Of a stretch of DNA of 41,134 nt, positions 1,384 to 34,039 are shown in pieces; position 1 is the first letter of the stretch, and each line of letters starts with the position of its first letter. The position numbers and the translations under genes are program-made. The notes beneath the pieces were generated by a model. That model was given only the letters and a program-made list of their open reading frames with translations, made no database searches and had not been told where the DNA came from. The stretch is from positions 1 through 41,134 of IMG/VR virus record IMGVR_UViG_3300046055_000089; one strand, 5' to 3'. The stretch comes from a virus. Its lineage: Duplodnaviria; Caudoviricetes.

Positions 1384-3138
1384 TTAGAAGTCCACCTCCG
1401 TCTCGGTGACGGTGGTGCCGCGCTCGCGGAGGTAGTCCATCTGCTCGCGGGCGTACGCCTCCTCCCGGCTCCCGCGGGTGGCGAGGAGGTAGGCGTAAGC
1501 GTCGCCGAACGGGCGCATCACGCGCCCGACGCGCTGGGTGCCCTGGCGCTTCGAGCCGCCAAGCATCGACGCGATGACCACCGCGTCGATGTCCGGCAGG
1601 TCGATGCCCTCGTCCGCGATGCGCGAGACGATGAGCGCGTCCAGCTCGCCATCGCGCAGCTGCTGGTACGCGGTCTCGCGGTCGCGGTGTCGGGTGTCGC
1701 CATGCAGGTAGGGGACGCCGAGCGCCTCGGCGTACTGCTCGCCCTGGTCGCGCCAGCCACAGTAGATCAGGACCGTCCCGCCCGCGCTGGCATGCGCGTC
1801 GAGGAGCCGCTGGGTGTCCTCGAGCTTCGCGGGGTTCTGCGCCGCGGCGATCATCTTCTTCGTGCCCTCGGCCCCGCGGTAGGCCTCGCGGTCGGCCTCC
1901 GCCGCCCAGGGGACGAGCCGGACGTCAACGTTGGGCCGGTGGACCCAGCCCTCCGCGTACAGCTCCTCCCACGTCGACGTCAGGGGGCGGCCGATGAGCG
2001 TGAAAATCTCCTCGCTCTTGCCGTCCGACCGTACCGGCGTCGCGGTGAGGCCGAGCCGGTGGCGGGACTGGATGTCGGCGGTGCGTCGCCAGATCTCGGC
2101 GGGGACGTGGTGGGCCTCGTCGAACACGACAGCGCCCCACTCGCGGTCGAACAGCTTCCGGCCGTGCCGGGACCTCGACGCCATGTCGTACGTCGAGATG
2201 GTGACCGGCCGGATGCGCTTCTCGCCGCCGTGGTACTGGCCGACCTGCCGGCGCGAGAGCGTGGTGTGCTCGCGGAGCGCGTCCGCCCACTGCTGGGCGA
2301 GCTCCCTGCTGGGTGCGAGGATGAGCGTCTCCTGGCCGAGGTCGGCGAGAATCGCCAGCGCGGCGATGGTCTTTCCGCTGCCGGGCGGCGCGTCGATCAC
2401 GCCGGAGCCGGCGTCGCGGAAGCGCTCCAGCCACTCCACCTGGTACGGCCGGAGGTCGAGGGTGTCGGCGAGCGCGATGTCGAGGCCTTCGCCGCGCTCA
2501 AGGTCGCGGTGGTCGAGCGGCGGGTAGCCTGCGTCGTACAGCGTCTCCTTGACGTCGGCTTCCGCGCCGGCCTTGATGCGCATCCGGGTGGCGCCGAGGA
2601 ACTGCGTGTAGTGTGTGTTGTGCTCCAGGGTCTCGCGGGCGACGTCCTCAAACAGCTCCGGCGTCTCGGCCTCCAGGACCGCGTAGCCGTCCGAGTGCGT
2701 GCGGAGCGTGAAGGCGTGGCCGCGCTCCCAGATGCGGCGGAGGCGGGTCTCGACGGACTCCGGGAGCTCGCCGCCGACGCCCGCGACCGCGTCCACGAGT
2801 GCATCGACGTGCTCGTAGGGACTGGTCCAGACGTCGATGGGGTCGGTGGTGAACAGGGTGGCCGCGCCGTCCTCGCTGGTCTCGACGAGGTGCGCGAATG
2901 TGCCGAGGGTAGCGCGGGTGTCGTCGCTGGCCGCGTCGCCGAGGTAGCGGAGCTGGCTGGGAAACAGCCGGATGCGCTCGTCGCGCTCGCGGTCCTCCTG
3001 GACGATGCGGCTGGTGTGCGCCAGCTCGTGCTGGCCGCCCAGCTCTTCCACGCGGTCCGCGAGCGCGAGTAGTTCATCGGGCGCGCCGGCGCGGATGCGC
3101 GCGGCGAGCTCGCCGAGTGAGAGGTCGGCGTCGCTCAT
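1384..3138 (-). CDS. SF2 helicase, XPB/Rad25 (Ssl2)-like
   Basis: Q motif LRPYQ, Walker A PPGSGKT, DEAHH, LGLTATP, DEGIDLP, QRVGRVMR; N-terminal region resembles the XPB helicase-associated domain. Confidence 0.88.
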   Translation of the reverse strand: MSDADLSLGELAARIRAGAPDELLALADRVEELGGQHELAHTSRIVQEDRERDERIRLFPSQLRYLGDAASDDTRATLGTFAHLVETSEDGAATLFTTDPIDVWTSPYEHVDALVDAVAGVGGELPESVETRLRRIWERGHAFTLRTHSDGYAVLEAETPELFEDVARETLEHNTHYTQFLGATRMRIKAGAEADVKETLYDAGYPPLDHRDLERGEGLDIALADTLDLRPYQVEWLERFRDAGSGVIDAPPGSGKTIAALAILADLGQETLILAPSRELAQQWADALREHTTLSRRQVGQYHGGEKRIRPVTISTYDMASRSRHGRKLFDREWGAVVFDEAHHVPAEIWRRTADIQSRHRLGLTATPVRSDGKSEEIFTLIGRPLTSTWEELYAEGWVHRPNVDVRLVPWAAEADREAYRGAEGTKKMIAAAQNPAKLEDTQRLLDAHASAGGTVLIYCGWRDQGEQYAEALGVPYLHGDTRHRDRETAYQQLRDGELDALIVSRIADEGIDLPDIDAVVIASMLGGSKRQGTQRVGRVMRPFGDAYAYLLATRGSREEAYAREQMDYLRERGTTVTETEVDF

Positions 3139-27973: not shown

Positions 27974-29365
27974 TCAGTCACCTCCCTCCGCGGTCGCCGC
28001 GTCCATCGCGTTGAACGCGCCGCCGACCTCGAAGTCCTCGAGGTCGTCATCGTCCGTGTTGGTGCCGGCGGCACGGCCGCCGTAGTTCGAGGTCGTCGAG
28101 ACCTGCGCGTTCTGCTTCTCCGCGAACCGTTCGAGCTTCTCGACGTCCTCGGCGATGCCGAGGTCCTCGAGATCCTCTTCCTCGAAGCGGGTCTGGGAGG
28201 TGATCGCCTCGACGAGCTCGTCGCGACGTCGCGACTGCTGCTCGTCGACGCGGTCCTCGAGGTCCTCCAGCTTCGAGAGGACGGCGTCGAGCTTGTCGTC
28301 GCCACCGTCGCCGGTGCCGTCGCCGTCGCCGCCGTTGTTCGAGGTGCCGGACTGGCCGCCGTCGCCGGACTGGCCGGAGCCGCCGCACCCGCAGTCGTCG
28401 ATTTCGAGCGATGCTTCGATCTTGTCTACCGTCTCGTCGTCCATCGCGTCCAGTTCCTCGACGCTGACCGTCGAGCGGTTCGCGAGGTGTTCGAGCCGGT
28501 CGTCGGGGTTGCTTCCCATGATCTGTTGGTTGGCTGCCTGCTGTTTCGACGCTCCACCAGGGAGGTCGTACGGTACGGTCGCAGTGTCGGTACTGTCGTC
28601 GACCTCGTCGTCGAGGCCGAGCGTGCGAAGGAATGCGTTGCCGACGCGCCGGGGGAACGACGCGGTCGACTGGTCGGCGTTCAGCGCGAACGCCGCCCCT
28701 GCTGGGGGGTCCCGGTTGCCGACCGCGTTCGCGATCGGCCCGTCGACGTCGACGGCGTTCGTCCGGGGCGCACCGCACCCGGACTGGGTCGTGTCGCCGT
28801 CCCAGTTGCACGCGCCTTCCGCGTTCGGGAGGACAGCGAGGTGGTCGGGCAGGAGTTCGACCTGGACCGCGTCGAACTCGTGGCCCTCGAACTCGCCGCT
28901 CTCCTGGACGACGCCGTGCCAGTAGCCAGTCGAGACCTCGAGCGGGTCGCCGTCGCGAAGCATTTCGACCGTCTGCTTCGCTTCGTCGCCGAGCTCGTCG
29001 CCGTTCTCGACCAGCCACTTCACCTGGACGAGATCAATCCAGACCTCGCCGTCGAGCTTCGCTCCGTCGTCGTTCGCTTCGACGTTCAGGAACCGCCCGA
29101 TCTGGTACTCTTCGAGTACTTCGGGCGCGCTCGCCGGGAGGAAGTTGCCGTCGCCGTCTTCAGGGTGGTTGACGGTGACGGGCGTGCCGTTCCAACCCGG
29201 TGCGGACTTCTGGATCTCCTGGAAGGGGAGGAAGCCGCCGTTCAGTACACCTTCCGACACCGCGACGACTGGCGCTACGAGATGTTTCCGTCCTCGCAGT
29301 TCTCGAACCTCGACCGCGTCGGGGTCGGGCTCGACCTGGATGGACAGGAGTCGGTAGTTCGACAT
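27974..29365 (-). CDS. Prohead protease/scaffold (DUF2213-like)
   Basis: Start MSNYRLL at 29365; WNGTPVTVNHP, EVSTGY, PDHLAVLPNAEGAC; acidic scaffold-like C-terminus. Confidence 0.85.
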   Translation of the reverse strand: MSNYRLLSIQVEPDPDAVEVRELRGRKHLVAPVVAVSEGVLNGGFLPFQEIQKSAPGWNGTPVTVNHPEDGDGNFLPASAPEVLEEYQIGRFLNVEANDDGAKLDGEVWIDLVQVKWLVENGDELGDEAKQTVEMLRDGDPLEVSTGYWHGVVQESGEFEGHEFDAVQVELLPDHLAVLPNAEGACNWDGDTTQSGCGAPRTNAVDVDGPIANAVGNRDPPAGAAFALNADQSTASFPRRVGNAFLRTLGLDDEVDDSTDTATVPYDLPGGASKQQAANQQIMGSNPDDRLEHLANRSTVSVEELDAMDDETVDKIEASLEIDDCGCGGSGQSGDGGQSGTSNNGGDGDGTGDGGDDKLDAVLSKLEDLEDRVDEQQSRRRDELVEAITSQTRFEEEDLEDLGIAEDVEKLERFAEKQNAQVSTTSNYGGRAAGTNTDDDDLEDFEVGGAFNAMDAATAEGGD

Positions 29366-29767
29366 AGTGGTCTCTGGAGTCAGCCGCCGGTCGTCGTGGC
29401 CGATACGGTCCCGCCTTCGCACCTCTCGAGCCTCGGCGGGGGAGACTCGGTCGACGGTGCCCGACACCGACCGCCGGTGCCGGAGATGTCCACGCCGGGA
29501 GTTGAACCCGGTCCTCGTCGACGATCGCGTCGACGGGCACCGCCTGCAGCTCGTGGACTCGGTCGCTCGCAGCGTCTCGAAGGCATCGGCGGGGAGTTTC
29601 ACCCCCGCTCGTTCGCCGTCGTCGCGACCAGCCCGCCGTTGCCCGGCGAGGTGGCGGCGACGTCGACGGCGAGCGATTCGTGGGGGCGGGAGAGAGGTCG
29701 ACTGGAACCCTCGCCATGGCGGACGCGTCGACGGACGTCCCGGGGTCATCGGGAGAAGGAGGCTGGG
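29366..29767 (-). ncRNA. ~400-nt structured intergenic RNA containing tRNA-like elements
   Basis: Largest gap in the late operon; several strong stems and T-loop-like motifs; no acidic ORF. Confidence 0.6.
29487..29558 (-). tRNA. tRNA-like cloverleaf lacking a canonical anticodon loop
   Basis: Acceptor GTCCACG/CGTGGAC+A, T arm CCGGG-TTCAACT-CCCGG, D-like AGCTGCAGGCGGTGC, anticodon arm replaced by CGTCGACG-CGAT-CGTCGACG; 72 nt. Confidence 0.7.
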
Positions 29768-30849
<1,082 letters not shown>

Positions 30850-30850
<1 letters not shown>

Positions 30851-33727: not shown

Positions 33728-33957
33728 CGCGACACCCCCTGGGTCCGCCGGGAGGCCTCGGCGACGTCGCGACCGATCGAGAGCTCGAGGGACCGGCGGT
33801 CGAGTTCGTTCGCGAGCTCGCGCAGCGCGGCGGCCCGGGTCGGCCCGATCGCGTCGACCTCCCCAAGGCGGGCGCGCCAGAGCTGGACGTCCTCGCCCTG
33901 GCCCTCGACGTCCTCGACGGCGCCGGAGAGCGTCTCGAGTGCGACGCCGTCAGTCAT
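33724..33957 (-). CDS. Hypothetical protein
   Basis: 77-aa ORF with an ATGA overlap; AIGPTRAAALRELANEL. Confidence 0.55.
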   Translation of the reverse strand: MTDGVALETLSGAVEDVEGQGEDVQLWRARLGEVDAIGPTRAAALRELANELDRRSLELSIGRDVAEASRRTQGVSR

Positions 33958-34030
33958 GGCGGCCTCCGTCGACGGCGGGAGTGTTGGCGAGCGATGCGAC
34001 TCGACGGGTCGAGTTCGTGGTGGAGTTCAT
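33950..34030 (-). CDS. Possible 26-aa microprotein MNSTTNSTRRVASLANTPAVDGGRHD
   Basis: Fills the gap after TerL, overlaps the next start and ends in a DGG motif. Confidence 0.3.
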   Translation of the reverse strand: MNSTTNSTRRVASLANTPAVDGGRHD

Positions 34031-34039
34031 GGTGAGTGG

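Follow-up and report, generated by a model that had tools for sequence, protein, structure and literature searches.

In the tRNA-like domain of tmRNA, an acceptor and a T arm are combined with a long helix that takes the position of the anticodon arm. Other tRNA-like shapes without a decoding role lie inside longer transcripts, as do the t-elements of the Haloferax volcanii 5S rRNA and of plant mitochondria, which the accessible parts of the reports propose or show to be RNase P and tRNase Z substrates that set the end of a neighbouring RNA (PMC4326828, PMC3296008, PMC1920247). In those parts, tRNase Z cuts the Haloferax t-element, and a crRNA placed between t-elements is matured in vivo (PMC4326828; PMC3296008). 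In vertebrates, mascRNA is cut by RNase P and then by RNase Z beside a structured upstream RNA, according to the available text of PMC8457004. Host RNase P also cuts phage RNAs, namely the P1/P7 C4 RNA, the phage M3 RNA and the T4 gene 32 mRNA (PMC11143913); these are bacterial, and the accessible part of that source describes none of them as an anticodon-less cloverleaf dividing a head operon. The known tRNA-like sequences of haloviruses are, in the portions of the literature at hand, either attP sites or an intron-bearing tRNA (PMC8707807, PMC7230728, PMC7911831, bioRxiv 10.64898/2026.09.13.751334). The tRNA-like genes of the HF2 group belong to the former, for example HrrHF2_450 of HF2 (PMC8707807; PMC7230728), while the viral tRNA of HFTV1 has an anticodon once its intron is removed. 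Long halovirus transcripts have furthermore been reported or proposed to be processed into shorter ones (PMC8707807, available part).

The element described here resembles the Haloferax and plant mitochondrial t-elements in being a tRNA-like shape without an anticodon. It differs from the Haloferax t-element in being viral, in lying between protein genes of a head operon, in being conserved together with its own flanking hairpins and in that its cleavage is only predicted. With mascRNA and menRNA it shares a 7-bp acceptor, a small D-like arm, a canonical T arm and the replacement of the anticodon arm by a hairpin. This is a likeness of shape, not homology, since mascRNA belongs to a vertebrate nuclear lncRNA with an upstream A-rich tract and a triple-helix element, while the halovirus element has neither and lies in the operon of an archaeal virus. 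The window, i.e. the whole 41-kb stretch of DNA that was analysed, is a virus record carrying an integrase (1-1245), a helicase and a Cdc6-like gene. Its morphogenesis module is encoded on the minus strand and comprises terminase, portal, MuF, DUF2213 protease, capsid, sheath and baseplate genes (Pfam, PHROGs). Among annotated relatives, the Halorubrum phage Hardycor1 comes closest in protease, capsid and portal (37-43% identity), and nearly all of the stretch is found in a halite metagenome run that may be its source; together these point to a haloarchaeal host. None of the 18 sequencing runs listed for the window sequence is an RNA dataset. The element and its neighbours are as follows.

29768..30850, minus strand: MuF (SPP1 gp7-like) head morphogenesis gene, upstream neighbour (Pfam PF04233, E 2.9e-12; PHROG 758)
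29487..29558, minus strand: tRNA-like element, matching the sequence, the minimum-energy fold and the comparison across lineages
29558-29552 with 29494-29488, minus strand: acceptor stem, 7/7 Watson-Crick pairs
29550-29539, minus strand: D-like arm with a CAGG loop, 4-bp stem including two G-U pairs
29535-29516, minus strand: hairpin at the anticodon position, 8-bp stem with a 4-nt loop
29511-29495, minus strand: T arm, 5 bp with a UUCAACU loop
29487, minus strand: discriminator A, unpaired
27974..29365, minus strand: DUF2213 head maturation protease, downstream neighbour (Pfam, PHROGs)
27441-26344, minus strand: major capsid gene, separated from the protease by a gene of 177 aa

The gap between MuF and protease, 402 nt, is the widest of the 23 gaps among the late genes listed. 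A second large non-coding gap of 312 nt lies between the terminase and a 252-aa gene (33728-34039, minus strand), and a search for a T-arm match in it gave none. The C-terminal part of the protease is acidic and may act as a scaffold. An internal Met near residue 284 lies in this long acidic part (27974-28520, minus strand), and a scaffold protein nested inside the protease gene is possible by analogy with HFTV1 gp17, reported as such in the accessible text of bioRxiv 10.64898/2026.09.13.751334.

A preliminary description, made from the letters alone, had read a tRNA mimic here with a perfect 7-bp acceptor stem, a canonical 5-bp/7-nt T arm and an 8-bp stem with a 4-nt loop at the anticodon position. 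Sequence and coordinates match exactly and all three parts are present in the minimum-energy fold, the anticodon-position stem gaining 2 more bp beyond a bulged A. What had been called a D-like segment retaining a GG does keep its GG and is better described as a real stem of 4 bp around a CAGG loop, with one A linking it to the acceptor. The discriminator A is likewise present in the window; it is not a conserved feature, being A, G, U, A, G and A in the six lineages compared below. The 72 nt fold as a cloverleaf at -37.8 kcal/mol (z -2.74), with 2 of 200 shuffles equally good. Seven T-arm-like matches occur on the two strands of the window and the only perfect 5-bp T arm among them is that of the element. 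A shape descriptor combining a 7-bp acceptor, a 4-5-bp stem with an NNGG loop and a T arm gave 0 strict and 18 loose matches in 100 simulated 41-kb windows matched in dinucleotide composition. The tRNA-like feature is not a product of chance. In longer context, the predicted pairing of the acceptor drops to about 0.65 (400 nt) and 0.43 (1 kb), and that of the D stem to 0.2-0.35. No CCA is encoded in the element. ARAGORN, from which an undetermined or pseudo call had been expected, called 0 genes at all in the window and made no call on L001-L006.

Protease searches returned seven IMG/VR and two metagenome contigs with 71-86% identity over the protease domain. These collapse to five distinct relatives (the L001 type, L004, L005, L006 and L026), giving six lineages with the window, which group together on one side of a split in a protease tree of 14 rows (support 84/96). 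The element is present 5' of the protease in all six and always on the protease strand, intact in five and degenerate in L026. Its distance to the protease start codon is 121, 121, 125, 109, 109 and 70 nt across the six lineages, the last value being that of L026. It is this distance, not that to MuF, which is kept, as other genes intervene in L004 and L026; the location ahead of the protease and capsid genes noted earlier is thus tied to the 5' side of the protease even where genes follow MuF. In L004, an HNH-like ORF and a small hydrophobic ORF, recognized by eye from their motifs, lie between MuF and the RNA region (1387-2565, plus strand), and in L026 another small ORF lies between MuF and the element. 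The L026 copy was missed by the strict script and spotted by eye. It has C-C and C-A mismatches where the acceptor meets the T stem, only half of the D stem and a T stem of 4 bp, and scores 17.3 bits with a covariance model built from five rows.

Outside this clade the element is apparently absent from protease loci. A T arm with a matching acceptor was found at 0 of 94 more distant loci (at most 51% identity), with up to 1500 nt upstream searched, some flanks being short and one duplicate locus in reverse orientation being skipped; a lone T-arm-like match lies upstream of the protease in three of the 94. The covariance model gave nothing above 20.1 bits on the distant protease loci and nothing above 19.3 bits on five outgroup records, and found one strong copy each in four of five clade records; the best of its weak extra matches are coding DNA and an apparently ordinary tRNA. 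Among viral contigs, the exact T-arm-plus-acceptor pattern hit 18 loci, namely the six clade members, nine ordinary tRNA loci, two bare T-arm hairpins and the locus L024. A looser T-arm pattern, run on 7 of the 64 parts of the contig set, showed no new member among the matches listed, which were mostly ordinary tRNAs. The upstream-motif pattern hit 119 loci in 53 of the 64 parts, yielding four known members and two unrelated T arms, and a two-hairpin pattern hit eight loci, the contig of L026 and seven without the element. Protease scans of genome contigs gave 0 and then two distant bacterial loci, and BLAST searches of phages and plasmids, with the gap or the element as query, returned short chance matches only. 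The L024 locus belongs to an unrelated phage, in which a non-canonical tRNA-like RNA missed by ARAGORN heads a tRNA cluster (2419-2525, plus strand). It consists of a 7-bp acceptor, a long stem at the anticodon position with a CUGCACA loop, a long variable arm and a T arm, and scores 41 bits with the model, the locus having been chosen through the shared T-arm pattern. Two unrelated viral contigs, L009 and L012, have the same short stem around 2485-2525, which carries only a T arm, with no D or anticodon arm; an inverted repeat and a run of A come after it.

The covariation among relatives that the preliminary description had called for is present, pairing being kept by double-sided changes, and none of the relatives carries a normal tRNA at this site, as simple decay would have left. 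In the five intact lineages, 35/35 acceptor cells are paired, with double-sided changes at pairs 2, 4 and 5, as are 25/25 cells of the T stem and 18/20 of the D stem, the latter with double-sided changes at pairs 1 and 2. Two of the four D-stem pairs are broken in L006. In an automatic alignment of five related rows, with the first bases of L004 shifted by two, 87.5% of cells pair and the covariation score is reached by none of the 500 shuffles and none of the slid controls, the shuffle control ignoring relatedness. With six lineages and few independent changes, this is to be taken as support for the structure and not as a probability. In the four intact relatives the acceptor and T arm are identical to the window at 27-29 of 31 positions, compared with only 34-45% in the upstream 200 nt, and conservation is higher in the core of the element than in the protease coding DNA (74-83%). 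The D loop reads CAGG, AAGG or CUGG with an invariant GG, and pair 3-70 is C-G in all six lineages. The region at the anticodon position is paired at its base and measures 27, 72, 41, 55, 55 and 61 nt in the six lineages, none of which has an anticodon-like loop in it.

Positions -1 and +73 are unable to pair in the five intact lineages. The two bases are identical in most cases (A/A in the window, at 29559 and 29487, and in L005; G/G in L006 and in the variants X3 and X7; U/U in L004), the exceptions being A/G in L001 and U/A in L026, and between close relatives the two change jointly. The variants X3 and X7, from Logan contigs, change the pair G9-U20 to G9-C20, together with the discriminator and one unpaired base, and in X7 (depth 4.85) the 4-nt loop is inverted. 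No acceptor or T-arm change is listed for either, whereas several substitutions and insertions are found in the 20 nt upstream. An acceptor-T helix that is nearly perfect and has -1 and +73 unpaired is the type of substrate cut by RNase P and tRNase Z. The conserved parts of the element would thus be those that these two enzymes read, and the variable parts those used for decoding and charging. Such conservation of the acceptor-T parts, combined with a free anticodon position and discriminator, argues against a decayed or intron-bearing tRNA, a tmRNA or an attP.

A comparison with described RNA classes is consistent with this. Consensus tRNAs have a U8 and a D loop of 7-11 nt containing A14. 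The element has the 7-bp acceptor with an unpaired discriminator of a canonical tRNA and, in five of the six lineages, a 5-bp T stem with a UUCRANY loop, and an anticodon arm with a 7-nt loop starting YU was found in none of the six. Position 8 is an A and the D loop has only 4 nt (NNGG), so that the usual U8-A14 core is missing; these features and the missing anticodon loop rule out a canonical tRNA. For an intron-containing archaeal tRNA, no bulge-helix-bulge was found in the window, L004 or L006, and the single matches in L001, L005 and L026 are at unrelated places and run into fixed arms. Hallmarks of tmRNA are the G3-U70 alanine identity and an mRNA-like domain with a tag peptide. The element has C3-G70 in its place in all six lineages, ARAGORN made no tmRNA call, and the element further differs from tmRNA in its D stem and variable discriminator and in that the 27-nt insert of the window is too small for an mRNA-like domain. 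Its position, not beside the integrase, speaks against a tRNA-type attP; the attP of HF2 is a host-identical 3' part of a tRNA lying beside the integrase. In Rfam, one weak match was obtained on 28500-30500, to mascRNA-menRNA (RF01684; 21.8 bits against a gathering score of 42.5, E 0.21). Membership of this family is rejected on the score and on the lack of A-rich/U-rich triple-helix elements, and no match to it was found in the five relatives at E up to 1. Over the gap, no Rfam 15 families (ribozymes, riboswitches and others) reached threshold in 28500-30500 of the window or in the five relatives. An HDV-like ribozyme, a box C/D RNA and a coupled upstream ORF were judged by eye from short motifs and set aside on unfitting helix order or conservation, Rfam also giving no match. 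A coding reading of the gap is contradicted by stops in L001, L004 and L005, which lie 85, 18 and 41 codons ahead of the protease anchor, respectively, and by 1-nt indels in close variants; in the window a frame is open from 29749 through the element into the protease, and the same frame is open for 165 codons in L006 and 150 in L026. What is seen throughout is the combination typical of t-elements, a tRNA-like acceptor and T arm without decoding capacity.

As judged from sequence comparison, the tRNA-like 72-mer forms one module within a structured region about 400 nt long, with the following further parts.

29682..29732, minus strand: 5' stem-loop whose loop is rich in purines, then a pyrimidine tract; candidate H-type pseudoknot
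29606..29675, minus strand: long imperfect hairpin with a GGCAA pentaloop at 29643-29639
29589..29608, minus strand: optional short hairpin beside the long one, with a UGAAA-type loop
29461..29483, minus strand: trailer hairpin 3 nt past the discriminator, seen with differing sequences in five of the six lineages
29410..29440, minus strand: second leader hairpin before the protease start, similar hairpin in relatives; not significant alone (z -0.46)

The long hairpin occurs in all six lineages, 75-118 nt before the tRNA-like element. Four lineages have a GRCAA loop (GGCAA or GACAA) and two have a GCAAC variant, with compensatory changes in the pairs below the GRCAA loop. Across 195 kb of clade DNA, a GRCAA-capped stem of at least 5 pairs, a motif defined from the cases themselves, has four occurrences, all of them here and on the coding strand. 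Long and short hairpin jointly reach z -5.5, for a region picked after inspection. The short hairpin is present in the window, L004 and L026, in a larger-looped version in L005 and L006, and is absent in L001. In a single low-depth contig (run X8), 44 nt between short direct repeats are deleted (window 29573-29616), which removes the short hairpin and gives an L001-like layout; this may be an assembly error. After the element, 2-3 unpaired bases starting with U are followed by a hairpin of at least 8 pairs in five of the six lineages, L026 being without it; a trailer of 3 nt plus hairpin arises in 50 of 2000 random 48-mers. In L005 and L006 (2814-2853, plus strand) this hairpin holds a second T-loop arm in an 8-bp stem, like a partial duplication. 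The 5' stem-loop may form an H-type pseudoknot, weakly indicated by a loop-to-downstream pairing of 8 bp with one compensatory change between L005 and L006, and of no more than 5-6 bp in the window, L001, L004 and L026. The gap as a whole is no more stable than shuffles (z -1.5), and among the downstream leaders one of four (window, L001, L004, L005) falls below z -2, that of L026 having z -0.4. A CCGAUGAC-like motif lies at the 5' end of the gap (window 29750 region) and is repeated downstream of the element. By eye, its AUG in L005, L006 and L026 starts a frame of 20-22 codons whose stop overlaps the protease start, an AUG which is absent in the window, L001 and L004.

One explanation for these features, and on balance the probable one, is that the element is a viral t-element, cut by the RNase P and tRNase Z of the host so as to split the late transcript and stabilise the protease-capsid mRNA. 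The late transcript would read through the gap from the portal and MuF genes, as suggested by the lack of any A/T run of at least 5, i.e. of a TATA-like box, in the gaps of four of the six lineages, the window included. A scan with bacterial promoter and terminator models, whose scope excludes archaeal promoters, detected a single site, on the opposite strand, and no terminator. The RNase P cut would fall before 29558 and that of tRNase Z after 29487, both enzymes recognising the 12-bp acceptor-T helix and the elbow formed by the GG of the D loop with the T loop. The downstream RNA would then begin with about 3 unpaired bases and a stable hairpin, shielding it from 5'-to-3' decay, while the upstream RNA would end 30-50 nt past the hairpin domain bearing the GRCAA loop and be stabilised by that domain. 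In this way the high-copy message for protease, scaffold and capsid may be stabilised apart from the low-copy message for portal and MuF. Should the tRNase Z cut be slow, the tRNA-like domain itself would be the paired 5' end of the capsid mRNA. The pattern of constraint, with acceptor-T helix, T loop and GG kept and the anticodon position, discriminator and acceptor sequence free, is easier to reconcile with a processing signal than with an RNA that is charged or decodes. The processing role raised in the preliminary description is therefore favoured by the homologue comparison, which also reveals the larger conserved structured region around the 72-mer that it had missed. Several points count against a t-element. 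Related head modules appear to manage without one, as at the 94 distant loci; a TATA-like run 192 nt upstream of the element, seen in L004 only, would allow a separate promoter; and the conserved upstream loop suggests an upstream RNA with a role of its own. The degeneracy of L026, the broken D pairs of L006, the missing U8-A14 core and the modest in-context acceptor pairing add to these.

It is conceivable, at a clearly lower probability, that the main product is instead a stable viral non-coding RNA, either the upstream domain of 150-220 nt, with its possible pseudoknot and the GRCAA hairpin, or the whole structured gap. The 3' end of the upstream domain would be set by RNase P, as in MALAT1/mascRNA, and the RNA would have a viral or host protein partner, possibly in head assembly. 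The strong fold of the upstream domain, the restriction of the GRCAA-capped stem to this site with its compensatory changes, and the identity of the weak Rfam match all agree with such a product. On the other hand, the upstream part varies widely in length and sequence, the short hairpin is optional, a MALAT1-type A-rich tract or U-rich loop is absent, and no RNA-binding family was named among the window proteins compared (40 with Pfam, 25 with PHROGs). A related and similarly tentative view is that the gap represents a new class of viral structured RNA, in which a pseudoknot and GRCAA domain with a tRNA-shaped handle would be excised by the host alongside capsid synthesis. By the same tentative view, the excised RNA might act in head assembly or counter-defence, as an archaeal-virus counterpart of the MALAT1/mascRNA design.

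An uncut tRNA shape in the mRNA leader, binding the ribosome or an elbow-binding protein and thereby boosting or timing protease-capsid translation, seems unlikely. The near-fixed spacing of 121-125 nt to the protease start in the window, L001 and L004 and the constant strand would suit it, yet the spacing is only 70 nt in L026 and the near-perfect acceptor-T helix with unpaired -1 and +73 is of the RNase P/tRNase Z substrate type. Somewhat less likely still is a released RNA of 72-117 nt that receives a CCA and serves as a decoy for defences directed at the tRNA 3' end or elbow, or titrates tRNA-binding proteins. Such an RNA would be produced together with the capsid message, and its acceptor and T arm are tRNA-perfect, but there is no anticodon loop to attract anticodon nucleases, which weakens the decoy idea for these, discriminator and acceptor sequence are not conserved, and the conserved flanking hairpins would be left unexplained. 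Finally, a functionless relic, either a decayed tRNA gene or an attP-like tRNA fragment, is very improbable and largely refuted by the covariation, for although HF2-group haloviruses have tRNA-like attP genes (PMC8707807, PMC7230728, accessible parts), the window encodes an integrase and L026 looks degenerate, the element at 29.5 kb is about 28 kb from that integrase and within the head operon, both acceptor strands co-vary, which a DNA crossover site does not need, the anticodon arm is kept in no lineage and the core outconserves the protease coding DNA.

A conserved tRNA-shaped module within a larger structured leader of the capsid genes, confined to one halovirus clade, is apparently undescribed. 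In the open full-text literature, no description of the element was found by title or abstract start, subscription papers being mostly outside this scope. In the accessible material of a survey of 10,006 viral candidate RNAs (PMC10690425), four sample ids were unmatched in four supplementary files and the T-arm motif was unmatched in three of these. In the literature found, as far as its available portions go, punctuation by t-elements is limited to an archaeal rRNA precursor, plant mitochondria and vertebrate lncRNAs. If the t-element reading is confirmed, the natural variants would map the minimal shape accepted by RNase P and tRNase Z, and the cassette could serve to release and stabilise RNAs in haloarchaea. 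It would also mean that the virus employs the tRNA-maturation enzymes of its host to divide its structural-gene operon, and would provide a concrete mechanism for the processing of halovirus transcripts and for setting the amounts of capsid versus portal in archaea.
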